The notes under the pieces are model-generated. The model was not told the DNA's origin, searched no databases, and saw only the letters and a list, made by a program, of their open reading frames with translations. A program made the translations under genes and the position numbers. Positions 20,941 through 64,000 of a stretch of DNA of 64,000 nucleotides are shown piece after piece. This DNA is from Trypanosoma brucei (lineage: Eukaryota), in the NCBI GenBank assembly GCA_000002445.1, contig CP000066.1:1312001-1376000 (forward strand). Reading direction: 5' to 3'. Position 1 is the stretch's first letter; every line of letters starts with the position of its first letter.

Positions 20941-20966
20941 ACACACACACATATATATATATATAA
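20941..20966. repeat. Compound (CA)5(TA)n microsatellite
   Basis: acacacacacatatatatatatataa. Confidence 0.9.
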
Positions 20967-27370: not shown

Positions 27371-27740
27371 GACAAATTCACAGATCTGCCCCGTACCTCA
27401 CCGCTCCAAACATCAAACCTTGGAGAGGCAACATCAAAGGAGGATAGGGAACAACAAAGACATATGGAGGAGTAGCAACCGCAGGCTGCAACACTGTAGT
27501 GACGGGGAACCAACAAAAAATATGCAAACGCCATGTCCACCACTCACAAGCAAGCTGGTGGGAAGTCTCCCGATGAATGGTAAAATAAATGTTACCCACT
27601 CATGCGCTAGCAATAAACTTTACCAATACTACCTCCTTCATGTTTCTCATTTCTCCCTCCCCAACCCTAAAAATAAAATTCACCTGTGTTTCCTGCACAC
27701 ACAGTCATGCGTAGTGGAGCCATGCACAAAATATACTGGC

Positions 27741-30356: not shown

Positions 30357-30639
30357 GTTAAACCCTTGATTGATAACTTGTTAACTTGTCTGAAAAGTGA
30401 GAAAGCGCAAGGTTGCAATCAGTGAGGACAACACGCGGCAGGAGGGGGGAGGGTTCGAGTTGCGAAAGAGGTGTGACAGGGCACAGAACGACCTCCTACA
30501 GCACGCAGTACAATCAAAGCGAAAAGGGATTTACACGGTGTAGAGCAATAGAGTTGAACTCGTTTTGGAGTGGTGCTTGGGTTTATTAATACTTTTTTTT
30601 TTTTTTGATTAACTGCCGATGTAAATAATTTTTTATTTG

Positions 30640-32390: not shown

Positions 32391-32509
32391 ATGTAAAGAC
32401 CCATTCGTACAATCCAATTTTTTCGTGTTGCAGTCTCGCACGTCTCAGCAACACTGCATATCCCTTCAGCCCATAATCCCAACAGACACACGCATATAAA
32501 CCGCAAAGC

Positions 32510-34492: not shown

Positions 34493-34760
34493 AGGATCAA
34501 AAGTATCTAATAAAGGTGTAAGATATTAGTGTGCATGTGTGTGTGAAGAGGGGGAGATATAAACATCAACAAGGAAAGAACCACATGCAAGAACAATGAT
34601 AACGAACATAAGGTGGGAATTCGGAAGACACTGTCACACATTTATCGTCACAGAGGTAGATTTTGCCTCATAGAAGAAGAGGGAAATATGATCTATTTTA
34701 CAGGGTATGAGGTTGTGCGGCCCCCCTTACCTAGTCACAGCAGTATGGATCAGTAATCTT

Positions 34761-35927: not shown

Positions 35928-36119
35928 TTAAAACAAAGGTCCGCTGCTTATGCCGCCCGCCCTATAAGCAACAGGATACTCTATACCTTGAAGAAGGAAC
36001 GGAAAGAAGTGATGAAATAGGGAGAACGCGGCAATACCGGAATGCTGATGCACTAATGGGACCGCATAGCACCGCTACGGAATTCTCGATAGAAACTACA
36101 CCCGAGACCATTACGTACC

Positions 36120-37394: not shown

Positions 37395-37764
37395 GACAAA
37401 TTCACAGATCTGCCCCGTACCTCACCGCTCCAAACATCAAACCTTGGAGAGGCAACATCAAAGGAGGATAGGGAACAACAAAGACATATGGAGGAGTAGC
37501 AACCGCAGGCTGCAACACTGTAGTGACGGGGAACCAACAAAAAATATGCAAACGCCATGTCCACCACTCACAAGCAAGCTGGTGGGAAGTCTCCCGATGA
37601 ATGGTAAAATAAATGTTACCCACTCATGCGCTAGCAATAAACTTTACCAATACTACCTCCTTCATGTTTCTCATTTCTCCCTCCCCAACCCTAAAAATAA
37701 AATTCACCTGTGTTTCCTGCACACACAGTCATGCGTAGTGGAGCCATGCACAAAATATACTGGC

Positions 37765-40380: not shown

Positions 40381-40638
40381 GTTAAACCCTTGATTGATAA
40401 CTTGTTAACTTGTCTGAAAAGTGAGAAAGCGCAAGGTTGCAATCAGTGAGGACAACACGCGGCAGGAGGGGGGAGGGTTCGAGTTGCGAAAGAGGTGTGA
40501 CAGGGCACAGAACGACCTCCTACAGCACGCAGTACAATCAAAGCGAAAAGGGATTTACACGGTGTAGAGCAATAGAGTTGAACTCGTTTTGGAGTGGTGT
40601 TGTTGAAGATTTGTAGCTGTTGTTAACAAAATGTGGGC

Positions 40639-43801: not shown

Positions 43802-45382
43802 TCTTGAAAATAAATCACCAATTAACGATAACCTACACTAAGTGAGCACCGCCAGCTGATGCACACAACTCTTTGTGCAAGGTTCGGTGGATGCACAACG
43901 GGAGGATGACCCATCCCGGTGTTTTTATGCTTAACAACTGCCTGCCGCCCCGCCCCCGAAAAGACAGCACATCTCCCACTAAATTACCAACTCCAAAACA
44001 TTCTTGTCCACTGGAAAAAAAAAAAGAATGCAAATCGTACTGGCTGATTGACATAAAATTCCATAAGGTAGAAAGGAGTGCAAAAGATGGCCGCACAGTA
44101 TCTGCACGCGCGTACGCGAGCAAAAGTGTGACCCCGCACCGTCAGCCAATACGATCAAATGATTGCTCCAACACCACATCGCTTGCGCCCCACACTGGGA
44201 TTCTGAACCCCTACAAAAAAAGGGGGGGACGTCCACATAATTCGGTGCTGGCTGAGCCGGCACCGTTCTTTTTCTATTTTTTTCGTCTACACTCGCTGGA
44301 TGTTTACTTCCCCCCCTCTCCATCCCTCCCTCCCTCGAAAGGCCTCATAAGGGATTGCATATGATCTCACACCGCTTCCGTGGACCGGGTAAGGAGTATG
44401 GTATGGGAGCACAAATTCAATACTTTTCCTTGCAGTCTCACACTACTGCTAGAAGATAAATCAATAATTTGTGTTTGAGGAGTCATGTCAACAATGAAAT
44501 CGATGCATCCATGAACTTGAGGGAATATAAGGGAGAAAATAAGGGGGAGAAGAAAAAACACTAACAAACACGATCGCTTCGATCTGTGCGTGGTTAGAGA
44601 CATGGACACGACCGGAGTAAAAAAAAAAAAGCAACGTAAACACGACTCAAAATGTCTGCTTAGACGAGTACCTGATTACACAAACTGGTGAGTGCACGCC
44701 CTCTCTCCACATTCCTAGCTTCTAACCATCCTGCGTAACCGGTTGCTTTACCATCACCTCAATGTGATAAATAGTCCGTCGTGGCGGCCCCGCTTTCCCC
44801 TTGGGTTCATACAAAGAAGCAAACAAACAGCGGCATGTGCAGGGGAACATGTGCAACACGAAGCGCCCAGCGAAACTAAATTACAAAGAGCGGTACCGAC
44901 CTGCGGTTTCGGCGAGATAACCCCCACTCTTTAGCTGTGGCGTACGCTTCTGTACGAAAGGCGACGCAGTCATAACGATACTGTAGGATTAAGCGAACAA
45001 TGAATAAGAGCACACAAGATCTACTCGAAGAATAGAGTTCCCAACAAATAAAAATTAAAAAAAGAGGAACAGCCCTTCAACCGGAGTTTTGCTTTGCCCT
45101 CTCCCCACCTCCTCGACCCCAACAATTTCCTTTAATCTGTTTTCATCGCTTTCTTTTTTGTTTTCATTTTTACTTTGTAGATATAACGGTGAAGCTACTC
45201 TACCATTCAGACCACCAGTTGACTCTACCCAGCTTTCAGCAGCAGACGAAATCTTATAGCAGTGCAGCAGCGCTTTCATTTCTGACGCCCACCATGTTTT
45301 GTTTCGTGCCAACCATGTTGTTTCACTACCCTTCTGCGGGAGTTGAAACAGACCGCGGCAGGATGATGGTTGGCGTTATTTA

Positions 45383-46348: not shown

Positions 46349-46854
46349 AAAAGAACCAACCAGTCAAACTATATAATGTAGCTTTTTTCTTGAAAAATGG
46401 GGAAGAGAAAAGAACGTGAGCCAGAGATGGGTAAGAGCAGTAGGTCCCCCTTTCCAACAGTACATGTAAATATTTCCGTACAAGCATGTACGGGATGTGG
46501 AAACACAAAAAAAATTCGAACAATATTAGTGGGTATAAGAATCCAGCGACAAATAAACGTAACAAAACATATGAAGGTCAGTAGCATAAAGGGGGGGGGG
46601 AAGGAAAAAAGGAGCGGAACAGGTCCCGTGCGCAATAACAGTCCCAAACAAATCGACCCCCGCCACGCCAGCTACTTTTCTTTCGCTTTCATCTTTTTTT
46701 CTTCCACTTTCCCCACCTTTCTCAATACACGGGATCTCACAGGTAGATACGTAAATACATATATTTGTGTGTATGAGAATATGCGGAGAAGGAGATCAGT
46801 AGTGTTAGCTCTGAAGAGAAAATACAATACGAAAGGAAAAAAAAAGGAGAGATT

Positions 46855-46880
46855 GGGGGGGGGGGGGGCGGGGGGTGGGA
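46855..46880. repeat. G-homopolymer / G-rich tract (G16 C G6 T G3)
   Basis: ggggggggggggggggcggggggtggg in the intergenic region. Potential G-quadruplex former. Similar G-runs occur at 9452-9475 and 46589-46600. A C14 run lies at 58775-58790. Confidence 0.8.
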
Positions 46881-48572
46881 GCTATGTTGCGCAGAATCAC
46901 TTTCTTTTTTTTTTTTGCCGCCGGAACCCTGTTTGGTGCTACCAAATTATGAAAGAGATAAACAGACAAACTACAAATCATTAGTGGGAATGGGTGGGGG
47001 AAACAAAGAAAAGAAATTGAGAAATCCGCTGGGGTTATATGAGGAGAACGCCCTTCCTTGTTCTCCCGCACACACATACACAGGCACGCACGTGTATGGA
47101 TACAAACAAGCATATAAATATGAAAGTATATCTACGCCTATTTTCCTTTCCATTGACAATATTATTATTATTATGCTGTGATATACTTACAACAGCATAC
47201 GTGCAAGTGTAAGCTGATTTGGGTCCGGTGTTACATTAATATATATATGAGCTTGTTTGTATCCGTGTACGTGTGTGTACTTCTCTCTCCCCTCTTAGTC
47301 TTTAGTTTTGACTTCTGTTTCACTTTGTTTTAACCAAAGGCAGAACGGAGATGAATATCATAATAAATGACGACTACTTGTTGGCGTGCGCACGCAAGTT
47401 GCAAAGAAGTTGTGGATCCTTCACTTTTCTTTTGTCTCACCCGTTCCTATTCCCTCATTTCATCCCCGTATTTATGAATATACATAAATGTATTTCTCAT
47501 TATAATTATCATTTATTAAGCAATATTAAGCATGAAAGAGAAAAGGAAGGAAAACAAGGGACACCTGGACCTTTGTGTTTTCCTCCCTTCTTTCGCTGCA
47601 CCTATATACCACCGTGTCATTGACAAGGCCTTCCCGACGCCGCGCTACACACTCCCTTCGCATATCGTCTCTACTTCTCATTTTCATATTTCATTTCATC
47701 GCGATTGCGTGGACAATTATCGTTTCGGCCTGAGCTTAATTGCTTTTGGCCCCTCGCATTTATTGCATTTGGCGTTTGTTTTCCCTTTCCTGTTTCATTA
47801 TTCATCTCTTCTTTTGTATCTCCGGCGGTAGTATCGTCGTCACTCTCCCTCCTTCCATTTCTCTCACTTTTCGCTTTAACAACAATCATAACAATAACAG
47901 TAATGATAGCTAAATGGAGGGAACTGCCAACAGCAGTGCAAACGAACAGACAAGTAACACTGTTTAGGAATCGGCAGAATGAAATGCACTACCTCTACCA
48001 ACCGTTGCCAAAGCAACGAAAGGGTAAATACTTCCTCTTCTAGTTTTGGTTCATTTCGTTTCGCTTCTTTTGTCCTGTTTTCTTTTCTTTTTTCGTCGTT
48101 GCTGACGGTTATTATATTAAACAAAATCAATAAATGAAATGAAGCAAGGTGCCTGTTCACGAACAATGTCCGTGTGCGTGTGTGTGGGGAGGGGGAGGAG
48201 TAAAAATACGTAAACGCGCGCGACCTTTTTTCCTTTTGAATACACTCGATGGTGTGCGCGTGGAGGGGGAATATCAGACAAAACAAAACCATATGTCATA
48301 GAGGCTACAGAAAAAAAAAAAGAGTGGCCACATTACTTGACATTGTCAAGTAACCCCCCCAAAAAATGGCGGAAGGCTTACGAAAGGCAAGCCTTTATCA
48401 CAATAGTAACAGTTTCGTGTAAAGGGGAGGGTGGAAAAGCAAAAAAACAAAAACAAACTTAAAGGAAGAGAGAGGGGGAGAGGTCTCATTCTTTCCCCCT
48501 CGCCCTCCGTTGCTCCTGGGTAATTAAAATATATCGTTGGGTAGCTCCCTCATCGTGGAGGTAGCGGCTGAC

Positions 48573-50002: not shown

Positions 50003-52198
50003 CTAATTAGAAACCCTTTTTCTCTTGTAAAAGTAAAGAGATGCCAAGGCAAAGGGTGGCTGCTTTGACTCCGCCACCTTTTCGTCATTAAACAACAACC
50101 ATTTCCCTGTTTCTTCATCCCGTATATGGCATACATAGTGTCCCGTCTTGGCACTGGCTCCCATGTGACTTATCATGGCGTGCAATCGGTAGCTTGCCGG
50201 TCCATCAACCTCGGGTGCAGTGACATTCCCGCGGGAAACCAATTGACCTTCAGAGCCCTCGGCCCTTGCGATTTCCCCCTCAATGTCGTTGCGGCTGAAC
50301 ACGTAATCAAGTGCCCTCTCCACGTTCATGCCTGTCTGCTGCAGCGCGTATTTTGCAATTTTTTCATCAACACCCATGCTAAGCAGTGTAGCGAGCGCCA
50401 TCTCGTCCACCGGCGTGAGCGCTGCGGAAACCGGCTTGTGTCGCAGTTCCCGCTCATTGGAAGGCATCTCCACTTCACCGCTCTGTAGTCCCTTTCCACG
50501 AAGATACTCCAAGTCAACTTCCTCCGGTACCTCTACAAACACATCCCGCTTCGTCACTGTCATTGTCTCCGCGTCGAAGTGTGCCCGACGGAGGTAAACT
50601 GCGAGAACATCCGGAAACGTCGCCACGCGTACAGTTTCGTTGTAGGTGACCTGGTTCCCGCACGCACTACAGCTGCAGTCTACTTCAATGGTTTTCATCA
50701 AAGATGTTATACAGGCTTCCAGCGAGGTCCGAGGACGACTTGCCTCAATTTCTTCTTCCGTGAGTTTGCGGTTACAAGCAGACCTCCGCTCTGCGGTACC
50801 CAGGGGGATGGGGAGCGAAAGACAACAGTCTGACTCATACGTGTAACGTACCTTGCGGCAAGAGCTACACTCAACACGATTCTCCAACTTCATCTTAAAA
50901 ATATCAACCGGGTGCCGGTTTTGCTTCGCGTCGACACATGAGGGTTTGACGTAGCGGCGCATTTCCTCCAATAGATATAAAAAGTACTCCTGGGCGTCCT
51001 GCTGCTCACTGGTGCTGAATTCGGGATGCCCCTCCGCGAAAACTTGCTTAAACTCACGTGCCGTTATACCGTTGGGCTCATCATTGTCACTTATGGAAAA
51101 TTCACCGGAAAGCAGGCCGCTGGCAACGCGCTCCACCTGGCAACTACGACACTTGTAGGGGTTTTCTCTACAGGCATTCTGGTGCCGTGTGTCGCGGCCG
51201 GCGTAGAACGCCTCTTTAAAGACCTCTAGCGACATTAGACACTGTAAAACGCAGTTCATGTAGCACGTGTTGCCGAAGTTTCGCATCCCGGTTCTTCCAG
51301 GGCCGAAAACTGGAACAAGAGTTTCCCCACTTTCCGTAATCCGGTTGAAGTCAAATTGCGACCAATAATCGTACTGTATCTCTCCGAAAGTTTTTGCAGT
51401 TTTTTTTGATGTTTTCACATCTATGCCGAAGTGCTTCATATGGGCCTCAAAGTGCACATCGGATACTTCATCATCGCAAGAATAACAGTAGAAGTCTGCG
51501 CCTGACGGAGTTATCGTGCCAAGTTTGACCACAACAGGATGCTGCGTGGTGTTGTGGTGTTCCAGTGCATGGCCCCTGCCACCTACTTCAGGTCGCGGGC
51601 AACCAACTGCCCCACATGTCACGCACATCCAATTATCCGTCTGACAACCACAACCCGCAACAACACAAGTCTCCATGTGGCTCGGCGCCGGTGAGAATGG
51701 GCTAGGTTGCTGCTCGAGACATACCAAATGTGGACACTGAGGCCGAGTAAACTGCTCTTCATTTGCGTCTATGGCTCCCTGCGCTCCTGTGGAGGTGGCA
51801 TTCAAGATACTCTGGTAGCATCCCTCAAGCAACTCGGGGGGCGACGAGAACGTGAGTGAGCACAGGGCGCAGCAGATGGCGCTCTCATATTCTTTTGGGA
51901 GTACAACGCCAAGTTTGTTCACATCCCTCGGTGCATCATCCTCCTTCTGGGGACACTCCTTCAGCCATACGTACATCGCATGGTTCGAGCGCAGTGAAAC
52001 GTGCTTCCTCACGTGCACTTCACAGAGGGCGATATGGCAACACATGCACACCAAAACACCTCCATTGTGCATGCATGTCCGGCAGCAGTAAGCGCACTCC
52101 TCCTTGTGAACGGCGGACTGATGATGCGGAGTTGTAACAGCCGATTCATCCCAGCAATGGGCACATGCCTCCTGAGTTATAGAAAAGGGAGGCGGCAT
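50003..52198 (-). CDS. Ubiquitin carboxyl-terminal hydrolase, USP5/isopeptidase-T-like (ZnF-UBP + USP + UBA)
   Basis: 731-aa ORF. Cys box GMRNFGNTCYMNCVLQCL. His box YRLHAMISHMGASAKTGHYVCHIRDEETGKWLLFNDEKV. Upstream Cys/His-rich ZnF-UBP segment (CGCQTDNWMCVTCGAVGC). UBA-like DEMALATLLSMGVDEKIAKYALQQTGMNVERALDYVF. Confidence 0.85.
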   Translation of the reverse strand: MPPPFSITQEACAHCWDESAVTTPHHQSAVHKEECAYCCRTCMHNGGVLVCMCCHIALCEVHVRKHVSLRSNHAMYVWLKECPQKEDDAPRDVNKLGVVLPKEYESAICCALCSLTFSSPPELLEGCYQSILNATSTGAQGAIDANEEQFTRPQCPHLVCLEQQPSPFSPAPSHMETCVVAGCGCQTDNWMCVTCGAVGCPRPEVGGRGHALEHHNTTQHPVVVKLGTITPSGADFYCYSCDDEVSDVHFEAHMKHFGIDVKTSKKTAKTFGEIQYDYWSQFDFNRITESGETLVPVFGPGRTGMRNFGNTCYMNCVLQCLMSLEVFKEAFYAGRDTRHQNACRENPYKCRSCQVERVASGLLSGEFSISDNDEPNGITAREFKQVFAEGHPEFSTSEQQDAQEYFLYLLEEMRRYVKPSCVDAKQNRHPVDIFKMKLENRVECSSCRKVRYTYESDCCLSLPIPLGTAERRSACNRKLTEEEIEASRPRTSLEACITSLMKTIEVDCSCSACGNQVTYNETVRVATFPDVLAVYLRRAHFDAETMTVTKRDVFVEVPEEVDLEYLRGKGLQSGEVEMPSNERELRHKPVSAALTPVDEMALATLLSMGVDEKIAKYALQQTGMNVERALDYVFSRNDIEGEIARAEGSEGQLVSRGNVTAPEVDGPASYRLHAMISHMGASAKTGHYVCHIRDEETGKWLLFNDEKVAESKQPPFALASLYFYKRKRVSN

Positions 52199-53571
52199 TA
52201 CCGCTTTGCGCGAGTTACTTTCAATACTTCACCCCACTCACCCCTGTTCTACTGGCTTCTCCTAGCCACACCTTTTCCTTGCACAAAACTTACTGTATCT
52301 CAAGAGAATGAGGGCGGTATCGCAGATATTACGCAGGATACACATGTTAGTTGATATAGCTCATTTGGCAAAATCAGGACCAATGGCGAACGTAACATGC
52401 ATGCGTTGCCTTTCACAGATAAACCAGCAGCACACCCGATGCGGCACAACCATACAGGGATCTAGAAGCTGGAAAAATTAGAACCTAACGCCGGTTGGGC
52501 GAACAGCTCACATCTACACAGGTATGCGTACCCGAAGGCTTATGGCCCTCACCCCTATACAGAGTAATAATAAAACGGCAAGAAATATCGTACAACGCTG
52601 CACGTCATGTCACCGCTGGTAGGTTGGAAGAGGCCCAGACACACCACTGGGGCGGTGGTGAGGGAGAGAGAACCTGTACCGTTCCCGTGGTTAGTAAACA
52701 TTTTCGGTCTTGTGTGACGCATGGTGCGGAAGAAAAAAAGGAGAGGACCGATGGTGTTCGCCGCAGCTGAGCCGCTCCACCGCCCATGCGGATGCATGGG
52801 ACACACAACTGGAACAGAAATGTCAGCTTAAGTCAGACTCTTGAATAACTGCAATTAAGACACACCATCGTGCGTCTTAAAATAGAGGCCACTGGCTCCT
52901 CAGACAGTTCGACATGAGAACACTTCAAGACTGACATCAGACGCGCACGACCCTCTTCTACCGGCGTCTGTGTCCATATTAATGGCCAAACCATCCGCGG
53001 CCGTTGCAGTGACACGGACGAGGTGATCATGCACCCACTTGCATCCACGCGCGAAAACCCAACTATATGATCTTCCACGCGATCCCGCCTCAAATTTTTC
53101 TACAGCACTCCTTTCCATGGATATCTCCCGATTTGCTTATCATGAGAGTTAGGTGCTTTTTCTCCAGTAGATATGCTGCGGATTCCCCGCGTGGTGGTCT
53201 CAGACACGCATCGTACGCCACTTGCCAGCCGTTTAAGCTGTTGTTTAAACAAGTGGTGCACCCAAATACCAAAAAAAAAAAAAAGAGAGGAACTAATAAA
53301 GTTCGAGCGACAAGAATTGAGCACTTTGGGATGGGATGGTGACAATCGCATCAGGTGTAAAGCATACGGTCCTGTGTCCGCAGTTTTCATCGTTACGCCT
53401 ACTAAAACTCAAAAGAGAAGAGGCGTTTCTCTAGCGCTAAACCACTGATGGGGGAAAACACAGCTCGTGCCCTCATTGCTCGTTTTAGCGCTGAAGCCCC
53501 TCTCCAATATTATACGTCCCTTGTTCCATAACCAAATAGCTACGGTTTAGGACACCGCCAAACCTACTAGC

Positions 53572-54375
53572 CTACGAATTGGTGAAGAACGGTTTCCTTT
53601 TCTCCAGGAAGGCACGCATACCTTCCTTTTGGTCAGCTGTGGCAAATGTAGCCTGGAATATCCGTCGCTCGTAATTTAGGCCCTCGCTCAGTGTTGCTTC
53701 AAACCCCCTATTGACACAATCTTTCGCAAGGGAAGTTATTAAGCAGCTGTTCAACGTAATTTTTTCAGCGACTGACATAGTTGCCGTGGTAAGTTCCTCA
53801 TGCTTCACAACACGGGAAACCAAACCAGCGCGCTCCGCCTCTTCTGCAGTATACTGTTGTCCCGTCAGCACCCATTCCATCGCTTTACTTTTACCAATTA
53901 GCCGCGCAAGCCGTTGTGTACCGCCAGCGCCCGGAATTGTTCCAATTTTAACTTCGGGTTGTCCGAAGGTCGCCTTTTCGCTGGCTACAACGATATCGCA
54001 AGACATGACAAGTTCACATCCACCGCCCAAAGCGAAACCGTTGACTGCGGCAATAACTGGTTTCTTAGCATTAGCTACAGTGTCGATACCGCGAAGCATG
54101 TCGTCCTTATAAAAGTCAACAAAACTTTTACTTGACATTGCCTTCACATCAGCACCGGCACAGAAGGCTTTACCCTCACCGGTAATGATGATGACCGACA
54201 CCGACGGATCCGCATCGTACTTCGACACGCTTTCAGCTAGCGCGCATAACAAATCCTTGTTAAGTGCATTAAGTTGAGCAGGTCTGTTAAGTGTCAGCGT
54301 CAACACAGCTCCTCTCTGAGAGCACTTAACGACAGCCTCCGTTGCAGAACGTAAAAGTGCACAGGAGCGTAACAT
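53572..54375 (-). CDS. Enoyl-CoA hydratase (crotonase family), mitochondrial
   Basis: 267-aa ORF. Presequence-like MLRSCALLRSATEAV. Crotonase motifs GEGKAFCAGADVKAM and GGGCELVMSCDIVVASEKATFGQPEVKIGTIPGAGGTQRL. Confidence 0.9.
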   Translation of the reverse strand: MLRSCALLRSATEAVVKCSQRGAVLTLTLNRPAQLNALNKDLLCALAESVSKYDADPSVSVIIITGEGKAFCAGADVKAMSSKSFVDFYKDDMLRGIDTVANAKKPVIAAVNGFALGGGCELVMSCDIVVASEKATFGQPEVKIGTIPGAGGTQRLARLIGKSKAMEWVLTGQQYTAEEAERAGLVSRVVKHEELTTATMSVAEKITLNSCLITSLAKDCVNRGFEATLSEGLNYERRIFQATFATADQKEGMRAFLEKRKPFFTNS

Positions 54376-56288
54376 TTAATCCATACAGATACACACCTAA
54401 ACACTTTTAGTAGGTAGCAGGGCAACTTCAAAGAGTTAAGCACAAATAATATCCTATTTTATCGCAAGTAAGCGCATGTTCACGGCGGACCGGCTCTTGC
54501 CACACATGTGATGCAAAGCCTCTTCAACATAGGGAACAAAGACATTTCCCCTACCGCTACGTCCCCACCGCACTCAAATTGTCACAGAAACTGGCAAATA
54601 CATAGGCAATAGTCAAAGGGGGGAAAGATGGTGCCTATCGTAGGTCCCACGCAGCTATGCTTTCATGGGACCATTGGAAAAGGGGCTGACCGTTGTCACC
54701 ATCCACAAATCATGTGAAAGGAGGCGACAGACTATGTTGATATACCACAGTGCAAAGGGGGACTTGGCTCCGCCTTGTGCGGCAGCCGATAAAGAGTGGG
54801 AGCGCTTCTCCACAGATAGCGAACCACGAGAGCGCATATTCACCTCGTGAACTAAATCTTTCGTCTCGTAAGCTCCCCTTCTTTGTTACCCTGTGCGGCT
54901 CGGATAAGAGTTGTTACTGCCCTCCACTTACGTTTCCCTCCCGCACTGTGATACAGGTTGGAAAAAATTGACTCTGCCACAAGTGCGGTCAAAAAAACTG
55001 GCTTGAGGAACCCACATGCAGATATCGATCCACTAAAGGACCGTGCAGCCCCCCTGCGTTAAAGCCACGGTCTGCACGTCTCCACTGGACCGGCCTATGG
55101 CGCATGACCCAACTACGGAAAAGCAAAAGAAAAAATTGGCCAACTATCGAGAAACGAGCTCTTCCACATGCCCGCAGCGGGTCTACAACTCCACTACTTG
55201 TGGAAGGATCCTTTCCAGAGTGGAATCACATGCATATTGCCTAGTTGTTGCGGAAGCGCCGCGTCAGTACTCCAATCCCAACTCGTCAAAAACAAAGCGT
55301 ACGCACACCCACGAGCCCTTCGCCCCCATGAAGGCAAAATGGGCAAAACCACTATCGTTAGTTAGGTACCTGTGGTCCGTTTTCACCGTGCATCAACCTG
55401 TCAAACAATTGCAATGGGGCGAATTCCTGAAACCACCTTATGCTGAACAGTAGGTGACAGAGTTTTTTTGTCTGCAGCATCAAGTCGACGACAGGATACC
55501 AGCGGCCGTACAAAGTAGACATACTGCCGCTCTGAGTAAACACAGGCAAGCTTCTTTGACAGGGACACATCCAACAACCAATGGCATAGGGAAAAACGTA
55601 CCTCAATTCTCCCCATCTCTACGGCATTTTACGGTGATCCAACCAATCTAAGGTGTCGGGGAGAAGCTTAGAAGGCGCGAATAATAGTTTAGTAGTGAAG
55701 CCGTCGATGTTCACGTTGCGTCGCCAAACTGGAACAGCCGTCCACCAACACCGTAACAATTAAAAAAAAAGCAGTGAAAGTAGGCGTTTCGTCCTAATTT
55801 CCCACTACCTTACAGCAGTGCAAGAAGGGAAAAGGTGCCAGCACTGGCACAGAGTGGCACTTAGAAAATGTCCGCTGGCCCTTCCCTATGGCCGTTCACC
55901 TCTAACCTGATACGCTGCCAAGAACTAAAACATACAACCGCAAACCAAATTCTCTTATGGTACAGACAGTTGCTCGGGCCAACCACGTTGCCCTGGTTTT
56001 ATGTGTGCCCAGACATTTGCTATTGAAGTCAACGCAGAAGTGAAGCAAAGGAGCTTTGTAAGCTACAAAAGTGTGACACCTTACGGTCGATTATCTACGG
56101 TTCCATCAAAGTATGTAGCATATATAAGCATGGAAAGAAATAGGGTAATAGGCGTGCTTTGTGCCTGTCACCCATCCGTACGTCTTTGTGTGCGTAAGTA
56201 TATATTTTAAAAAAAATTGTGCCAGTACAAAAATAACAGGACAGCACACCCTTTAATATAAAGTGTACAAACATACAAACTTCATATA

Positions 56289-57473
56289 CTACAGAACACC
56301 TAGCATTTCCAATTTTATGTTCACTTCCTTTGCGACGTCTTCTTGGCTGCGCTTCAGGTCCTCTGTTTTCTTTGCATCATTGTTGATAAGGTGAGTCATA
56401 TGCTCTACGGCCATTTTGACATTTTTAACGGCCAGTTCTTCAGTACAGCCTTCAAAGAAGGGGTGTTTCAATAACTCGGCGGCTGATGGTCGTTCCTGTG
56501 GATCCCGAACGAGACATTTCTTGATGAAATCTCGGGCTTCTTCAGAGTACACCGGCTTTTCCGGTAAGGATGGGGTAGTTTCACCCGCTATTTTCCCTAG
56601 CAGCTGGAACAAGTTCATCTCATCTGGGGGAGCCCACGGGTTCTTCCCCGTCACCGTGGCGATCACTGTAAGACCCAGAGACCATATATCACTACTGAAG
56701 CTGTAAACGGTTTGCTCCAGGCGTTCGGGGGCCATAAAATACATTGTCCCTACGTAGGTTGAAGATACATCAAGCGTTTGCACCAGCTTCGAAACCCCAA
56801 AGTCACTAATCTTAACATATCCGTCGTCACGAATAAGCAGATTGCTTGGTTTTAGATCCCTATGAATAACGCGCTTTGTGTCATGGAGGTATACGAGACC
56901 AGATACAACCTGAAAAAAAATATCTCGCAATATGGTTTCCTCTATGCCCTCCCAGAAGTAGCTCATATCCTTTAGGGTGTAAGCCATCCACTCCATGGGT
57001 ATCACAATGGCACCTTCCTCCGAATCCCAAAACGCCCCCAGATTCTTCATGACAAAGGGGGAGTTGGACTGTGAACTGAAGAAGGATAATTCCCGATCTA
57101 CTTCATCTCGGTGTAACTTTGATGTTATTGGTATGTGCTTCAGCGCAACGGGGGTTCCGTCTTTAAGCCTCGCGAATCGAACGGTGCCGCTTGCGCCCCG
57201 GCCAATAATTCTGCGTGATGTGCAATCGATATCTTCTTTCGTCACACTCCCAAGTATTTTCCTCCCATCTGTAGTAAACATACCCGACTCATTAAGCAAG
57301 AATGCCCGCAACTGAAGGCAGTTATTATTCTTTATTTGATACGATTGCAAGTCATGCTGGGTTTTTTCCACTGCCACAAGATCTAACGCAATCCCCTTCC
57401 TTTTCATTTGGATTGGAATCCGTTCAGAGACACGCGCTGCGTAGTACGAGTTGGGCGCGCCAAGAGCAATCAA
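56289..57473 (-). CDS. MKK1: MAP kinase kinase (STE7 family)
   Basis: 394-aa ORF. IGRGASGTVRFARLKDGTPVALKHI, HRDLKPSNLLI, DFGVSK. The activation loop LVQTLDVSSTYVGTMYFMAPERL carries the MAP2K S-x3-S/T pattern. The symbol MKK1 rests on recalled chromosome-3 gene order (Tb927.3.4860) and is uncertain. Confidence 0.75.
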   Translation of the reverse strand: MIALGAPNSYYAARVSERIPIQMKRKGIALDLVAVEKTQHDLQSYQIKNNNCLQLRAFLLNESGMFTTDGRKILGSVTKEDIDCTSRRIIGRGASGTVRFARLKDGTPVALKHIPITSKLHRDEVDRELSFFSSQSNSPFVMKNLGAFWDSEEGAIVIPMEWMAYTLKDMSYFWEGIEETILRDIFFQVVSGLVYLHDTKRVIHRDLKPSNLLIRDDGYVKISDFGVSKLVQTLDVSSTYVGTMYFMAPERLEQTVYSFSSDIWSLGLTVIATVTGKNPWAPPDEMNLFQLLGKIAGETTPSLPEKPVYSEEARDFIKKCLVRDPQERPSAAELLKHPFFEGCTEELAVKNVKMAVEHMTHLINNDAKKTEDLKRSQEDVAKEVNIKLEMLGVL

Positions 57474-57723
57474 CAGAGGGTTATTTTTACGACCTTACAC
57501 TAGTTTTTTTTGTTCAGAAAGAAAGTGGGTATGCCAGTTATGTAAGTCCGAAGTCTCTGAATATACAAAAAAAAACAGTATGTGCATAGATAAGGTGGAG
57601 ATTTTATTCATTTCACAATTACAAAAAAAACCATTAGAACTATGAAGAACTTAATGTGTGTAGACAGAACAGAAAAGTCGAGGGGGTGTGTAACAATATG
57701 TATACGTTAGGTAGGAAATTCTC

Positions 57724-58695
57724 CTACCATTGATCTTTAGGCGAAGGTATGGTATCGACGTGACCCTCGCCACTGCTGTAACCACCGTCCAACCCGAGGA
57801 AAACACTATCTCCCTGCGTGCCAGCGGTTGAAGCACACACCGCTGGATGCTTGTCTGACCTTTCGGTGGCTGAAGATCTTTTGTGAGTCTCGTTCACAGG
57901 TGCGGCCCAGTGCAGATGCTTGGACCGGCCACAAGTGGCACAAAGAGGCCTCCCCCATTGAGGTCTGAAACTACCACACACAACACCAATGTTATTTCTC
58001 TTTGGTGTCGCTTTCATTTTTTCTGCTTCCTGCCTAAAGCGGGAGACGGCGCTGTTCACAGCATCGAACGGTACACGTTGTTGACAGGAGGTCCGCGCGG
58101 CAAGCGCTGACGATGCGGACTCCACCGGGTTGTTGCGATGGCTACGTTCTCTTACCTGCTTCTTGGGCGTCCCGTCCCGAGATCCAGGGGCAGAATGGGG
58201 TCCGACACAATGGTCCACGTGATCTCGGCTGCCACGACGAGCCATCGACGATCTGTTCTGCACTCCGCTGTACGAAACCGCCCGCCTCAAACTTTTTACA
58301 GGCGGTGCAGCCTTCTCTCCAAACTTGATAACTTTGGGAGAAGGTAATGGACAGACCGTATGATGTAAGGAAGGCGTGATATCATTTACTCGATTTTTAC
58401 ATCGTGCAGTAAATGGCAGACCTTTGTTGCTAGTTTGTAAGGCCATAGGTCGTGGCCGAATGACCAAAGTGCCTTCATTTTTTCCTTGAAAAACGTTATG
58501 AAGTAGGAACCTGTTGGAGAGTACAGCGTCTTGATATTCTGCTTGAATCTCCGAAGGTTTCAAATTTCGCACTCGCAAAAATTCGGGTACTTTTAAAAGG
58601 ACATCAGATACGTCGGATGTTTCGTCCACTACAAGTTTAACCGCTTCATCATCGGTATGATGTGGTTCTCGCAACCACACTTTGACTACTCCCAT
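57724..58695 (-). CDS. Hypothetical protein (track ORF 57724..58788 trimmed to Met after the G/C homopolymer)
   Basis: The track ORF begins MGGGG within a C14 (plus-strand) homopolymer at 58775..58790. The next Met gives MGVVKVWLREPHHTDDEAVKLVVDETSDVSDVLLKVPEFL. A basic, Ser-rich C-terminal half follows. No family recognised. Confidence 0.4.
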   Translation of the reverse strand: MGVVKVWLREPHHTDDEAVKLVVDETSDVSDVLLKVPEFLRVRNLKPSEIQAEYQDAVLSNRFLLHNVFQGKNEGTLVIRPRPMALQTSNKGLPFTARCKNRVNDITPSLHHTVCPLPSPKVIKFGEKAAPPVKSLRRAVSYSGVQNRSSMARRGSRDHVDHCVGPHSAPGSRDGTPKKQVRERSHRNNPVESASSALAARTSCQQRVPFDAVNSAVSRFRQEAEKMKATPKRNNIGVVCGSFRPQWGRPLCATCGRSKHLHWAAPVNETHKRSSATERSDKHPAVCASTAGTQGDSVFLGLDGGYSSGEGHVDTIPSPKDQW

Positions 58696-60190
58696 TGTCG
58701 GTGTCGAAACTGCGAAGAAGGGGAAAAGGCGCGCCACAATAAATTTGAGTTGACTGAGCAGCATGCAACTACTCCCCCCCCCCCCCAAGATGCGGGGGTA
58801 TGCTCATCAAGAGGAGAGGTGGTGCAACAAGGCTATAAATGAAGGTGGATGACAATGATTTTTCTCCACGGCGAAGAGAAAGCTTGTATTAAAGAAAAAT
58901 TCTTTTGAAATTACAGACCCCTTCAATAAAACATTAATTTGCCGACTCCAGACACTCTTACAAAGGGGGGGGGACACGTGTAATGCTAAGGGATCAGATA
59001 TCGTGGGTACCTTACAGACGCACAGCCTCTTCATCCAATAAACCAATAACCATCCTCAACCACCTCAACACACAGTGCGACCGGAGTAGTGTTCCTCAGA
59101 AGCGTCGACACTTCACATATTTCTCCGCACAGCCACCCCAATATTAGGACTTCATTCTGTGTTTACTGCGGCAGTTCATCGCATGCCAGACGGGAATACC
59201 ACCACATATTCACATACTGTTACAACAAATCATTGATCCGTGCCCATGCTACATAATAATATATAAGAAAACTAGTTTGCTTCCCGTTAGTACGCACCTC
59301 CAAGCAAACGTTCAAAAAGAACGAAAACATTGGTCCATCTCCAACGCATTAGAGGAACAGATGAGGGCTTCGTATTGCCCTTCTGATTTCACAACCTTCT
59401 CATGGGAGAAATGCCGCGAGCTGTTGCCGGTCTCCTCAGATAAAAATACACAGATGTCGTTGATACTCCCCTCCTCAGCCCGAATTGTACGTTATAATAT
59501 GATTACCTATATAAGTGCCTAATGGTTACCGTAATTTGGGTGACAAACGCCATGAATCCTGTTACCGATGGACGCGTTGTAGTTAAACTCGAAAAAAAAA
59601 AACACTCACCAGAAGTATCCAAAATATTAAACACGATCACCATCGACATGTGGATCGCATCTTCATCCTTGTCAGGTCCCCCCAAACAAGCTCACAGATC
59701 CTGCGGTACTATAATTGTCTGAGTCGCGCTGATTTCTGCTGTTTTGGTATTACCGCGGTGAGGCCATCTCATAGTGTATCGCGCTTACAAGAGCGTTCCT
59801 TTGACACCCCGCTACTTTTTAAGCTGCCCCACGTGCCATCATGTCAAACTGTTTGACCGACGAGATTGTGCAGGCATTAGGACAAAAGAAATATAAAATG
59901 AACACAGGAACGGTGATTGTCGTTGCCAGCAGTAGTCTATCAAAAATAATAAAAGGCACGAGGAGACGTAGACAATCAGCGAAGAAATTGCAGGTGTATT
60001 TGAACTGAAACTCTGCTGAGGACTCATATGACTCCCTATCTTTCACGCAAGACATTAGCGGCCAAAGAGTTTCGCATGTTTTCTTATATTTACTCCTTAC
60101 GTTTTAGTATCACTCGTTCCCTCACCAAATAAGACTCAATGGAGTTTACCCGCTTCAACTATGCTAGTGTTTCATTCAGCCTTCACCATC

Positions 60191-60745
60191 TTATTCAAAG
60201 GCTAGAAGAGGGTTTTGGAACAGTTCATCAAATTCTGTCAGCGCGCGCTCGAGGAACTCTATGTCCTTGCACTCCGGAGAAAAAAACCTGAAGAGAGAAT
60301 CGGTTCGAGCCTTCTCGGTTCCAGGTTTCCATAGTATGGGTTGCAGAGAAAGTGTATTTACACTGGGATCAAGCTCACGGGAGAAGGTTCCCTCTTTCAC
60401 AAACATGTTCGGGCGAAAAGTCACCGACACGCAACGGCAGATAGACCCGTCCCTAACACTTGTCTTCACTCTAAAGTCTGTCAGAGCCCGTACAATTTTT
60501 GGATCAATTGTACCATTTAGTAACCCCATAAGGGGAGATTCCACTGCCACAAATGCACTGCCCCAAAACCCTTCTATTTTTTCCAGCTCGAGGTGCCGTT
60601 TATCGAAAAGTGGTTCAATCTTTGACCGGAAATCAATGCGCACTTGATTTGTAAATTCTTCGATTTCCTTTTCCACAGCTGTCACTTTCTCATTGCATTG
60701 AGTAACCGCATTAAGAACGTCCACCGGTATGGAGCTCATCTTCAC
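60191..60745 (-). CDS. Nucleosome assembly protein (NAP/SET family)
   Basis: 184-aa ORF. EPLFDKRHLELEKIEGFWGSAFVAVESP matches the SET/NAP pattern ([26 protein letters not shown]). ILWKPGTEK matches IKWKSGKD. SLFRFFSPE matches ESFFTWF. Compact NAP domain length. Confidence 0.7.
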   Translation of the reverse strand: MKMSSIPVDVLNAVTQCNEKVTAVEKEIEEFTNQVRIDFRSKIEPLFDKRHLELEKIEGFWGSAFVAVESPLMGLLNGTIDPKIVRALTDFRVKTSVRDGSICRCVSVTFRPNMFVKEGTFSRELDPSVNTLSLQPILWKPGTEKARTDSLFRFFSPECKDIEFLERALTEFDELFQNPLLAFE

Positions 60746-60946
60746 TTGTTGTGTTCTATATGACGCAATTGAGTTTCAAACGCAGAAGTCCACCAGGACG
60801 AAGAACAGGAAACAGCGAAGTAGAAGGAAGACAAAAAGTAATACGTCAAGTAGCAAAAGAAAATAATAAATTGACCACCACAAGTTCAGTAACCCTGAAC
60901 CTGCTCCAAAGGGGGGGGATCCGAGTGCAAAGATGTTACAAGCATT

Positions 60947-61561
60947 TCAAATCCTTTTCGCTAAAGCCACACCCAGAGAACACATTATACGAATGCCATT
61001 GTACAAAAGTGGGTACGCTGGTGCATTTTCTGCGCCATTTTGCTCCCCGAGCTCCTGGTGATGCAGTTCTTCATCCCTGAACCGAGCAACATACTCCATG
61101 ACTTCTGCCCAGTCCTTTTCATCCTTGCCTTTCGAAGCACCTTCCGACTCCTCGAGGGATTGTAGCTCCCTAAGCTGATCATTATAGTGCTGTGCTATTG
61201 TGACTTCAACAGCAGCATGGCAACACATTACTGCATCCTTTCCCAGAAGAGCGGTGCAACTACCCATCACAAAGGCGCCCACGTGAAACAGTGGATCTAG
61301 TAACGTCAAGCGCACCGAATGCTTACGAGCTAGGTGACCCATAACCTCTTCGTGAACGAGCTCATCCCTCAGTATCTCCTTGACAACTGGCACGCCACTA
61401 TCGAGGGGGGACATCCATAGCAACTGATACTTGCATATGCGCACCGCAGCCACTTCCCCAGCCTGGTCAACGCGCACAGCTTCATCGAGCTTTTGCCGCT
61501 TCGCCGCGCTTCTGAAAACACGAGCTGGGTTCTGAAGGTTAACCACCGATCTGCGTAACAT
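60947..61561 (-). CDS. COQ7: Ubiquinone biosynthesis protein COQ7 (5-demethoxyubiquinone hydroxylase)
   Basis: 204-aa ORF. [14 protein letters not shown] matches COQ7 (IRVDHAGEYGANRI). [34 protein letters not shown] matches [44 protein letters not shown] matches FRDEELEHHD. APAYPLL matches APAYAVL. The di-iron E-x-x-H ligands are present. Confidence 0.9.
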   Translation of the reverse strand: [204 protein letters not shown]

Positions 61562-64000
61562 ACCTAACTAGCTTCAAGGGAAGGCATTTAGCAAACAAAC
61601 AAACATACAAAAGGATATATTGCCTAAAATGGTCGCGCAGCGAATGAATTGCTGAGACAAAGACTCCCAAACTATACCCCCTCTGGGATCAAGTAGGAAA
61701 TGAACATACTGTGGGATACTCGCGTTGGATCCGCCTCCTGTGAACCAGTATTTTCCATACGAGATGGCTGCTTTAGCGAAAAACCGACGAAGCAGTTCAC
61801 ATGCGTACACGGAGATGCGCACGCCGAGGTCAACCCTGGCTGGCCCGCTCCAGAACCGACTCCCAGTGCTGCCGCTGCAGAGAAGAGGGGAGAACGGCGA
61901 TGAATTCAGCGTGAGAACCCAGTTTACAATACCGTGGTGGGGCTCCTCCTACGCTACTTTGCCCACAAAAGCAGCCACACTCAACGCCTCCAGGCACGTG
62001 GAGGAAAATAAAGAAAGGTAAGAATCTCTTCTAACCCGAGACGGTGGCTCCACAGACCCTCAGCCTACTTCTAGCAACCAACGCAGTCGAGGACGGTAAT
62101 GAGAGGGAGGAAGCAGCCCGTTCACAATCAGCTCCAGGAAGCAAGAAAGACCTCGTAACCGCTGCTCCGAGTCGGGTGCCCACACGGGCAAAACTCCGCG
62201 CACCCTTTCGGGCCTCGGCACAGACCCAGTGCGATTCCCCATCCCACCTCTCCCAAAAAGTCCACCAGTGCGCTGTGCTTTCCACCTGACCACAGTCGTC
62301 CTGTTGCCAATATAACCCATTTCTTAAGGGAAGCCCCGTCGTCCACAGTTAAAAAGACGGCGTGTGGTCGTAGCGCCATGGGACTCTCCATATCTGTGCC
62401 TGCTGCTGAAATGCTCGCCCCGGCGATTGCCGTCCCTACAGCAGGCTCGTCTATTCAGTGAAAAAGAGAGGGGAGTTGGCATGTTGCGTGTGTGTGTCGG
62501 GGCTCAGTGCCTTCGTTGCTCCTTTGGGATTTCAGTATCAGTTTTTTACTCTCAGCACGCGCGTCGGCCACGCATAGGCCGCCTTTCCCGTTGGGGCGGC
62601 GTTCGCGCCCTTCTTTGAACGGGGTCGGCTTTACCCCTTTATCGTTTCCGTTTTTTTTTTTTCGAGGCTTCCTCCAGCCATATGTTCTGAGGATGGGTGT
62701 TGGGTACAAACTTCGTTGAAGTACCTGCTTAAGGTTCCTATTTTTTAGTTGTTTATCCCCCAAGTGGGGGTTACCTCGTCTGCGCCTTTGCCTGTGTGGG
62801 GCGCGGAAGACGGGACGGCTTACGACGGAGAGAGGTGCTCCTTTACAGGGGTAGAACGTTGCCAAACTTTTACTGTTTAGCCAAATCTTTTTGGTATATA
62901 TTTTGAGTATTAATTACCCTTTGGAGTGTGCACGTGTTGTTTTCCTTCACTTATACGCGTGTTCCCCGACTTCCAACTGTTGTGCAAGTCTCTTCCTTGG
63001 TTATTAAAAAAACACTAGTGGTTACAAGTTGCTTTACCATATCCTTACCGGTTGTTTTATTAAGGTGGTTCCGTTCAATTATGCGCGTAAGATGACGTGA
63101 TGTATTTATGTAATACGCATAGGCTTGTGTAAATGTGGTTTTCCACAATTCCCACAAATGTGTTACTGTGGATAGTTGTTTTTGTTCCGTTACGCTTCTT
63201 TGTTTTTAGACTATCGCGCACGTCACGGTTTAGGTCGCTTCCACTGCTCTTGTTGTTGTTGCAACGTCCTCGGCTATCTTCTTTGTATTGATAAGTGCGC
63301 CCGTCCGTCATAGCTAACCTGGTTGTTGTTAAGGGTTGTCAAATCTACCTATGCTTAGTACTTTATGCATTTAGGATATGCGCAGAACTGAACTTACTTC
63401 GTTTTTGCTGCCTCATTTGCCGATTCAGCACAGATGGGATGCTTTGCGTCTGCTTCATGGGGTGTGGAGGTGACGGTTTTTAGGTAACAGCCGACCTGCG
63501 TTTCTTTGTACCACTCTTTGGAGGACGACACTCCCTTTTTTGTGTCGCTGGGAGAAAGCGAGTAGTCGGAAAAACGAATGGTTCGCATCAGCGGTTGTTT
63601 ACTTCTTCAGTTTTGTTGTTTGTCACCCCCGTTTATGTGGCTGTTCGTGCAGATTTGTGCTTGTGGTAACCTGTGGAATGGTGGGCAAATCAGTAAAATC
63701 GTAGCGGTTGAGCCGTTTTAGCGCACATTTGGTGATTTCTTATGAGCAGTTTATAATAGGGGGTAAAGAGTGTTTCTGCCCCTTACGTCATAGGGTGGTT
63801 GTGCCTGTGGCGATGGTGCAGGACGGAATATTCTAGGTAACTTCTGGTTGTTCCGTGCTGCTAACCATATGGGGGAAATGCATGTTTGATTCTCTTGTTG
63901 GTTGTATTTAACAGCAAGTGATAACTTTGTCTGTTTCTTGTCATCATTTTCGAAGGTGACTGTTCCACTGAAATGTGATATTTTGCCGCCGACTTCGCCC
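61562..64000. promoter_or_regulatory. Gene-free region with a strand-composition switch; candidate divergent strand-switch / RNA Pol II transcription start region
   Basis: No ORF over 140 aa on either strand. The plus strand is C/A-rich at about 61900-62330 (GT-rich on the minus coding strand, immediately upstream of the minus-strand PTU). The plus strand becomes G/T-rich from about 62500 to 64000 (gtggttccgttcaattatgcgcg..., ttgttgttgttgcaacgtcc..., ggttgttgttaagggttgtc). Confidence 0.35.

Follow-up and report, generated by a model that had tools for sequence, protein, structure and literature searches.

The right end of the 64,000-nt window, the whole stretch of DNA that was analysed, belongs with a probability of about 0.93 to a divergent Pol II start region on Trypanosoma brucei chromosome 3, located between Tb927.3.4890 (COQ7) and Tb927.3.4900 (tRNA isopentenyltransferase, IPPT). 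In chromosome coordinates this divergent strand-switch region (dSSR) covers about Tb927_03_v4:1373562-1376059, and it measures 2,498 bp from the ATG of COQ7 to the ATG of IPPT. The locus is a T. brucei Pol II start region (TSR) at a dSSR and corresponds to an already known, previously catalogued pair of divergent Pol II units; the finding is correct but ordinary. Table S14 of Kolev et al. 2010 (PMC2936537), which gives unit names without start coordinates, types as 'Divergent' both the minus-strand unit from Tb927.3.4890 to Tb927.3.4400 and the plus-strand unit from Tb927.3.4900 to Tb927.3.5730. The same study reported 5'-triphosphate reads to be enriched 'at every divergent transcription unit' and at all sites of modified or variant histones. 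The two units are listed there, and the 5'-triphosphate enrichment was assigned to our locus by look-up of this study, not by read-level re-analysis.

The divergent start proposed from the letters of the window alone was thus validated by the published listing and by the plus-strand genes to its right, and the check otherwise adds little beyond confirmation. A full-text literature search for Tb927.3.489x and Tb927.3.490x returned no paper. By analogy with other divergent regions, the locus may additionally be an ORC1/CDC6 binding site, possibly a replication origin, and we put the chance of this at close to even. At least one such site was reported in 62 of 88 divergent switch regions, and 19 of 42 early origins were centred on divergent switch regions (Tiengwe 2012, PMC3607257), but early origins are found at no more than roughly a fifth of divergent regions, which counts against this reading.

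Flanking genes and the initiation zone

COQ7 (inferred Tb927.3.4890) occupies 60947..61561 on the minus strand as a 204-aa ORF with a PF03232 domain and opens the polycistronic unit that runs leftward. Its protein matches XP_844081.1 of T. b. brucei TREU927 (1,653,225-bp contig) without a difference. Sequence past position 64000 was taken from a contig of T. equiperdum (GCA_001457755.2), a strain other than that of the window, which when reverse-complemented matches window positions 50947-64000 at 99.95% identity without gaps and with which the TREU927 splice-site coordinates agree. On this extension contig, the ATG of IPPT (inferred Tb927.3.4900; plus strand, window-equivalent 64060-65436, translating to 458 aa) lies 60 nt past the window end, followed on the same strand by Peptidase_A22B (signal peptide peptidase, window-equivalent 65665-66723) and LETM1 (window-equivalent 67134-68579). 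The IPPT of the extension contig shares a 90% cluster with TREU927 XP_844082.1, the accession directly after that of COQ7. Published identifiers frame the pair, with NAP2 being Tb927.3.4880 (PMC8559703) and LETM1 being Tb927.3.4920 (PMC6027440).

Past the window end there was neither a continuation on the minus strand nor a convergent gene. Since the genes found there are on the plus strand, the spacer between COQ7 and IPPT is divergent, neither convergent nor internal to an array, and the further unit that the initial annotation had expected to head rightwards is the one that begins with IPPT, Peptidase_A22B and LETM1. COQ7 (minus) and IPPT (plus) both have their 5' ends toward the spacer, and ARAGORN, Rfam and the 'Divergent' typing of Kolev et al. 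agree that no gene of another polymerase class is contained in it.

The published splice sites place the window exactly at Tb927_03_v4:1312001-1376000. Acceptors of Tb927.3.4880, Tb927.3.4890, Tb927.3.4900 and the novel transcript Tb3.NT.63 (Kolev 2010) all fall on an AG at a single offset of 1,312,000, and those of the three genes are at the correct spacing from their ATGs given the published 5'UTR lengths. This fit and the identity of COQ7 to the TREU927 protein bear out the earlier assignment to chromosome 3.

The spacer had been described as gene-free, which is accurate for open reading frames and does not extend to transcripts. No ORF in 61562-64000 is credible; the two longest measure 136 aa (a low-complexity minus-strand ORF with a TTG start) and 98 aa, and a Pfam search with ten spacer ORFs gave no match above noise. 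ARAGORN predicted no tRNA genes in the spacer, and Rfam gave no matches, whether the gathering threshold or E<=1 was applied. A search for repeats and hairpins returned just one weak 18-nt inverted pair, and the single loose G-quadruplex candidate (minus strand, 62225-62254) represents no excess over the rest of the window. The spacer does, however, hold a published trans-spliced and polyadenylated transcript, Tb3.NT.63, at 63210..63909 on the plus strand (Kolev 2010, Tables S7 and S12).

Tb3.NT.63 is listed in Table S7 of Kolev 2010 (PMC2936537) at 1375210-1375909 on the plus strand, with a length of 699 nt and an abundance of 1.09 RNA per cell, and in Table S12 with a primary acceptor at SAS 1375296, which is window position 63296. 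Its 5' end is at 63210; an AG is present at 63208-63209 and another at 63294-63295, both of them preceded by a pyrimidine tract. The transcript has no credible ORF (longest ATG ORF, 47 aa) and is the earliest processed RNA of the rightward unit. Between it and IPPT lies a further stretch of plus-strand spacer (63910..64000), with the IPPT acceptor at window-equivalent 64018, just outside the window as is the ATG at 64060; Table S12 of Kolev 2010 (PMC2936537) gives SAS 1376018 and a UTR of 42 for this gene, and the extension contig carries the AG followed by C.

On the other side, the primary trans-splice acceptor of COQ7 is at 61571..61573 on the minus strand, its AG appearing on the plus strand as CT (61572-61573). 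The mRNA begins with base 61571 and has a 5'UTR of 10 nt, as published (SAS 1373571, UTR 10; Kolev 2010, PMC2936537, Table S12). The earliest acceptors, at 61571 (minus) and 63210 (plus), bracket 1,638 bp devoid of mature mRNA, as befits a TSR. Because the first acceptors stand at these positions, productive starts are confined to approximately 1.64 kb, and the productive initiation zone of the COQ7/IPPT locus is narrowed to 61572-63209. The midpoint of the first acceptors is 62390, and the flip in strand composition at 62358 lies within about 30 nt of it.

Strand composition and the skew flip

A switch from a CA-rich to a GT-rich plus strand had been noted by eye, and sliding-window and cumulative skew both confirm the flip as real. 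The plus-strand keto skew, (G+T-A-C)/N, runs from -0.11 to -0.20 in 61600-62350 and from +0.15 to +0.27 in 62350-64000, and among all 500-nt windows in the 64 kb, the five with the highest values fall within 62501-64000. Over 69.7 kb, made up of the window and 5.7 kb of extension, the cumulative G+T skew reaches its global minimum at 62358, on a plateau at 62257-62487. We take this plateau (62257..62487) as the border of the two divergent arms, with the T-A minimum at 62267 and the G-C minimum at 62456. The change-point at the flip has a z of 8.6, which was matched by none of 2000 base shuffles and none of 2000 50-nt block shuffles, and comparable local flips (z 7.1 and -7.7) are found where a CDS borders an ordinary spacer. 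The right arm has a keto skew of +0.203 over 1659 nt versus a maximum of 0.189 in any array window of equal size. The left CA-rich part exceeds the array background only modestly, its sense skew of +0.149 being equalled in 10.5% of equal-sized array windows, and so is not exceptional. What is unique to the flip is a lasting change of sign together with so strong a right arm.

Within the initiation zone, the leftward arm (61572..62358, minus strand) has a sense keto skew of +0.164 at a GC content of 0.53, made up of a T skew of +0.224 and a G skew of +0.112. The rightward arm (62359..63209, plus strand), which precedes the first plus-strand acceptor, has a sense keto skew of +0.208, with a T skew of +0.332 and a G skew of +0.072. 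G exceeds C and T exceeds A on the coding strands of both arms, as in the GT-rich promoters of Wedel 2017, and internal array spacers have the same sign, with a pooled sense-strand keto skew of +0.096, a T skew of +0.132 and single spacers reaching +0.227. Because ordinary internal spacers share it, the GT excess is a necessary rather than a sufficient feature of a GT-rich promoter; it marks the direction of transcription and is no proof of a promoter. The expectation of a GT-rich coding strand in each direction was borne out on both arms, but the property is not specific to starts. On GT skew by itself, start regions and ordinary spacers are indistinguishable, and it is the lasting sign change that is diagnostic.

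Sequence elements associated with starts were also examined, using as a score the coding-strand TSR 10-mers of Wedel 2017 (PMC5579346; Dataset EV1). Immediately right of the flip, the rightward sense strand carries a poly-GT tract, TGCGTGTGTGTGTC, at 62485..62498 (plus), which includes three of these 10-mers (TGCGTGTGTG, GCGTGTGTGT and CGTGTGTGTG). It also carries a T12 run at 62651..62662 (plus); homopolymeric T runs disfavour nucleosomes (Wedel 2017, introduction, PMC5579346). The 10-mers occur in the initiation zone at 9:0 sense to antisense versus 74:62 in internal spacers, the numbers being small. The rightward arm contributes seven sense and no antisense matches (8.2 per kb) and the leftward arm two and none (2.5 per kb), while internal spacers carry 3.2 per kb sense and 2.7 per kb antisense. 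As a specific start marker the 10-mers were rejected, since they are almost as frequent in internal spacers. No other 10-mer is enriched nearly as strongly in the first fifth of TSRs as GGGGGGGGGG, a long G run (Wedel 2017, PMC5579346). No run of at least six G or C is present in 61562-64059, and the nearest plus-strand G10 is at window-equivalent 68667, past LETM1.

The skew might instead be the generic sense-strand composition of non-coding transcribed sequence, produced by pyrimidine tracts, U-rich UTRs and transcription-coupled mutation bias, in which case it would report the direction of Pol II transcription and not the cause of its start; the divergent start itself is undisputed by this explanation. 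We regard it as a real contender, at somewhat under even odds. It accommodates the same-sign skew and the sense 10-mer density of the internal spacers described above, as well as the comparable change-points at ordinary CDS/spacer borders, and on the right side GT richness peaks in the processed Tb3.NT.63 itself (+0.240). Against it, the segment 62359-63209, which is outside any mapped mature RNA, still retains the full skew of the rightward arm with its seven sense and no antisense 10-mers, and synthetic GT-rich elements suffice to drive orientation-dependent transcription and H2A.Z deposition (Wedel 2017, PMC5579346).

The GC-rich core and the weaker alternatives

The spacer has a GC-rich core at 61700..62700 that spans the flip. 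Its GC content of 0.53-0.58 is the highest among non-coding 400-nt windows (non-coding mean 0.436, sd 0.057). CpG-island character was considered for the core and rejected, as the observed/expected CpG ratio is not raised (0.74-1.02 versus 0.91 in the non-coding background).

A GC-rich island adjoining COQ7 was also found in five other Trypanosoma species. These islands, near COQ7 and the flip, have a GC content of 0.58-0.72 in 200 nt versus spacer medians of 0.32-0.48. COQ7 heads a divergent unit also in T. cruzi, T. theileri, T. melophagium, T. conorhini, L. donovani and Leptomonas. Peptidase_M18 (aspartyl aminopeptidase) adjoins COQ7 in six other trypanosomatids, and T. brucei has therefore been rearranged here. 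The T. brucei spacer showed no sequence conservation with those of T. cruzi, T. theileri, T. vivax and L. donovani, nor with those of T. grayi, T. conorhini and T. melophagium. The spacers of T. theileri and T. melophagium align with each other in the M18-side arm only and not in the GC island. Not even sister species have the primary sequence of the island in common.

With a GC content as high as or above that of coding sequence (0.514) and an M18 neighbour apparently lost by rearrangement, the core could be thought an unannotated or decayed coding gene, for example M18 or a retroelement relic at the synteny break, but this is very improbable. Its ORFs, none longer than 136 aa, are spread over different frames and match nothing in Pfam, tblastn with M18, kinesin and the T. 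vivax upstream ORFs returned only noise (E >= 0.3), and comparable GC islands stand beside COQ7 in species that retain M18. The two weakest alternatives, each with practically no probability, are refuted by gene orientation: a long intergenic spacer within a single unidirectional array, read through from the right, would suit the placement of all window genes on the minus strand but not the next three genes on the plus strand or the end of the minus unit at Tb927.3.4890 (Kolev 2010, Table S14), and a convergent strand-switch or termination region, for which no supporting point was found, is contradicted by the 5' ends and mapped acceptors of COQ7 and IPPT, which face a spacer holding no tRNA or other Pol III gene.

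Returning to the divergent start region, the GC island at the flip, recurring beside COQ7, is possibly the sole thread of this analysis that may be new; no description of such an island as a feature of divergent promoters was found in the literature searched. The start region of the COQ7-first array may be ancient, and its Trypanosoma GC core at the flip may have outlived the replacement of the opposite arm in T. brucei, though we consider this unlikely. If islands of this kind were general at trypanosome dSSRs, they could keep the two unidirectional start zones apart and in position, one possibility being a barrier that favours nucleosomes between GT/T-rich arms that are poor in them.

Proposed mechanism and likeness to known systems

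In the mechanism that we propose, Pol II would start two polycistronic units in the spacer, running leftward from Tb927.3.4890 to Tb927.3.4400 and rightward from Tb927.3.4900 to Tb927.3.5730, the directions demonstrated by gene orientation and by the published divergent pair. Initiation would be dispersed, with no focused core promoter, as general knowledge of other T. brucei start regions suggests. The zone would be divided at the observed flip, about 62358, into two arms that are each G+T-rich on their own sense strand. GT and T-run sequences on the sense strand would set direction, disfavour nucleosomes and promote H2A.Z deposition; a causal role for GT and the chromatin marks at the COQ7/IPPT locus would likewise be expected from what is generally known of such regions, over about 10 kb of which H2A.Z/H2B.V, H4K10ac and BDF3 are enriched. 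Trans-splicing, at the demonstrated splice sites, and polyadenylation would then resolve the rightward primary transcript into Tb3.NT.63, IPPT and later genes, and the leftward one into COQ7, NAP2 and later genes.

Siegel, in 2009, is said to have placed T. brucei Pol II start regions at divergent strand-switch regions. The closest likeness is to such T. brucei dSSR start regions (Kolev 2010, PMC2936537; Wedel 2017, PMC5579346), with which the COQ7 locus shares an ORF-less spacer of about 2.5 kb, two arms with excess GT on their sense strands, tracts of poly-GT and poly-T, and a transcript of low abundance adjoining the start zone. It differs in having no long G run, even though G10 is the top-enriched published 10-mer, and in its weakly GT-rich left arm and the 1-kb GC-rich core across the flip. 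Cordon-Obras et al. 2022, as summarised in PMC13532274 and PMC11796357, are described as finding sequence-specific unidirectional promoters, two separate ones per divergent region, with poly-T and poly-GTGT tracts at a Pol II peak and a 75-bp core promoter containing three short motifs. As far as these summaries go, the COQ7 locus resembles that model in having (GT)5 and T12 at 130-300 nt right of the flip.

The switch region of Leishmania major chromosome 1 (Martinez-Calvillo 2003, as cited in PMC5579346 and PMC2936537) appears from these citations to be likewise bidirectional, with two polycistronic units, a short spacer and no canonical promoter. Leishmania is, however, a different genus, and the orthologous COQ7 spacer of L. 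donovani is nearly without skew (-0.012 and +0.085). As an analogy only, vertebrate CpG-island promoters may be compared for their broad initiation, divergent transcription, GC-rich core and H2A.Z-flanked open chromatin. The COQ7 locus differs from them in its CpG observed/expected ratio, which stays around the background value, and T. brucei units differ in being polycistronic and resolved via trans-splicing.

Divergent gene organization at the COQ7-IPPT locus

No credible ORF was found to the right of the COQ7 start codon (ATG at 61561, minus strand). The longest ORFs measured 136 aa (TTG start, low complexity, minus strand) and 98 aa, and none of the 10 ORFs of the 2.4-kb spacer that were searched gave a Pfam match above noise, in agreement with the initial annotation, which had seen no credible ORF for 2.4 kb upstream of COQ7. 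The spacer contained no tRNA, no match to an Rfam family whether the gathering score or E<=1 was applied, and no repeats except one weak 18-nt inverted pair. The description of the right end (61562-64000) as gene-free holds for ORFs but not for transcripts, since the published transcript Tb3.NT.63 lies inside it.

Sequence for 5.7 kb past the window end was obtained from a 40.9-kb contig of GCA_001457755.2, named T. equiperdum, which encodes the COQ7 protein and whose reverse complement matches window positions 50947-64000 at 99.95% identity with 0 gaps. The next three genes on this contig are all on the plus strand, namely IPPT (tRNA isopentenyltransferase; 64060-65436 in window-equivalent numbering), a Peptidase_A22B signal peptide peptidase (65665-66723) and LETM1 (67134-68579). 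The COQ7-IPPT region is therefore divergent, as had been proposed together with a second unit heading right. The IPPT ATG lies 60 nt past the window end, giving a spacer of 2,498 bp from ATG to ATG.

COQ7 has the same protein sequence as XP_844081.1 of T. b. brucei TREU927, which is encoded on a 1,653,225-bp contig, and the TREU927 IPPT carries the next accession number, XP_844082.1, and falls in one 90% cluster with the IPPT of the extension contig. NAP2 is Tb927.3.4880 (PMC8559703) and LETM1 is Tb927.3.4920 (PMC6027440); gene order suggests that COQ7, IPPT and the peptidase are Tb927.3.4890,.4900 and.4910. Primary splice-acceptor sites were taken from Table S12 of Kolev et al. 2010 (PMC2936537), which gives 1372755 for Tb927.3.4880 (5'UTR 16 nt), 1373571 for Tb927.3.4890 (10 nt), 1375296 for Tb3.NT.63 (5'UTR not given) and 1376018 for Tb927.3.4900 (42 nt). 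After subtraction of one offset, 1,312,000, all four fall on AG dinucleotides and the acceptor-to-ATG distances fit the sequence for the three genes; thus the window is Tb927_03_v4:1312001-1376000. Table S14 of the same study catalogs the flanking putative Pol II units, Tb927.3.4890 to Tb927.3.4400 (-) and Tb927.3.4900 to Tb927.3.5730 (+), both as Divergent (PMC2936537), which supports the reading of the right end as a divergent Pol II start, a feature already in the literature.

Strand composition across the spacer and the array

The reported switch from CA-rich to GT-rich composition is real. Plus-strand G+T (keto) skew ranged from -0.11 to -0.20 over 61600-62350; between 62350 and the right end of the window it was +0.15 to +0.27, and the top five GT-rich 500-nt windows in the 64 kb were all inside 62501-64000. 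Over the window and its extension, cumulative skew reached its global minimum at 62358 (plateau 62257-62487), with turning points at 62267 for the T-A and 62456 for the G-C component. The change-point z of 8.6 was equaled in 0 of 2000 base shuffles and 0 of 2000 block shuffles.

Internal spacers of the array had a pooled sense-strand (minus) skew of +0.096 (T +0.132, G +0.049), with single spacers up to +0.227, and its coding sequence had +0.034. The left part of the feature (sense-strand skew +0.149) is not exceptional, because approximately 10% of equal-sized windows within the array attain this value, while the right part reached +0.203 across 1659 nt against 0.189 for the highest equal window. 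Ordinary gene/spacer borders can show local flips of comparable size too, so it is the sustained sign reversal, not GT richness as such, that is diagnostic.

Other features of the array were also recorded. A tandem duplication (22366-30579 and 32390-40602; 8.2 kb, 99.44% identical, period 10,024 bp) carries four genes per copy, encoding a dynamin-like protein, an LRR/DNAAF11-like protein, a glycerol-3-phosphate dehydrogenase N-terminal domain protein and an M1 aminopeptidase. T. brucei is known to have two dynamin-like genes in tandem. Inside a 2.2-kb spacer, a plus-strand 195-aa ATG ORF (46397-46984) interrupts an array that is otherwise entirely minus-strand; it had no Pfam match and is probably a chance ORF. 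GC content over 52401-53000 is unusually high for non-coding sequence, and internal spacers hold long G runs fitting G-quadruplex patterns at 9453-9469 (+), 46855-46879 (+) and 44310-44334 (-), two of these three being on the array's antisense strand. With the 1,312,000 offset, the "novel transcripts" Tb3.NT.56 to NT.61 and NT.63 (Kolev 2010) fall in long spacers of the window, the minus-strand sites being 20914-21553, 30495-31557, 43885-44515, 52394-53261, 54531-56094 and 58837-59856; ORF-empty spacers are therefore not transcript-free.

Synteny break and GC-rich island

In T. cruzi, T. theileri, T. melophagium, T. conorhini, L. donovani and Leptomonas seymouri, a unit at a divergent switch likewise begins with COQ7 and then NAP2. 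The divergent neighbor of COQ7 was a Peptidase_M18 gene, then kinesins, in all six other taxa (contigs L003, L004, L005, L007, L008 and L009), whereas T. brucei and T. equiperdum have IPPT, the signal peptide peptidase and LETM1 on that side. The T. brucei lineage therefore exchanged the opposite arm, making the COQ7 switch region (60947-64000) a synteny break. T. vivax instead has a GC-rich repeat of 1068 nt upstream of COQ7, present in two copies that are 5.8 kb apart and 99.3% identical.

No primary-sequence similarity was detectable between the COQ7 spacers of the compared species, yet they share an architecture. In T. cruzi, T. theileri, T. melophagium, T. conorhini and T. grayi, the flip is found 52-334 nt upstream of the COQ7 start codon, at the same place as a 200-nt GC peak of 0.58-0.72 in spacers whose median is 0.32-0.45 (L003 7600-7900; L004 7560-7880; upstream of COQ7 in L006, L007 and L008). 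Across T. brucei and these five other Trypanosoma, 200-nt GC in the island is 0.58-0.72 versus a spacer median of 0.32-0.48, with no primary-sequence conservation of the island. For T. brucei, the flip falls at -798 from the COQ7 ATG, and the GC-rich core around it extends over about 1 kb (61700-62700, GC 0.53-0.58), the maximum among all non-coding windows in 69.7 kb, with no raised CpG ratio and no protein or RNA-family match. A description of such an island was not found in the literature examined, and it stands as a single-locus observation.

Initiation zone and comparison with known start regions

Tb3.NT.63 (1375210-1375909, plus strand, 699 nt, approximately 1 RNA per cell; Kolev 2010 Table S7, PMC2936537) maps to window positions 63210-63909. 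AG acceptors are present at 63208-63209 and 63294-63295, both with a pyrimidine tract upstream, and no credible ORF was found in the transcript. The first acceptors of the leftward and rightward units, 61571 (-) and 63210 (+), are separated by 1,638 bp, and productive starts must therefore fall inside this interval. The flip at 62358 lies about 30 nt or less from its midpoint. The left arm (61572-62358, sense minus) has keto skew +0.164, T skew +0.224 and a sense:antisense count of 2:0 for the 10-mers of Wedel et al. 2017; for the right arm (62359-63209, sense plus) the values are +0.208, +0.332 and 7:0, and internal spacers gave 74:62.

The most likely mechanism is dispersed Pol II initiation over two unidirectional start zones lying back to back. 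Within H2A.Z-rich open chromatin, direction would come from GT- and T-rich sequence on the sense strand, and primary transcripts would then be resolved through trans-splicing and polyadenylation. For the COQ7-IPPT locus, both the presence of chromatin marks and a causal contribution of GT-rich sequence are inferred. As reported by Wedel et al. [quoted passage not shown]

The published TSR 10-mer GGGGGGGGGG was found within the unit but is missing from the start region. Long G runs, the strongest 10-mer class in the GT-rich start regions of Wedel 2017, are absent from the COQ7-IPPT start region, which differs from them in this respect. Close to the right of the flip, a TGCGTGTGTGTGTC tract occupies 62485-62498 and a run of T12 occupies 62651-62662, an arrangement resembling the poly-GTGT and poly-T that Cordon-Obras 2022 reported at a Pol II peak, as that work is represented in PMC13532274.
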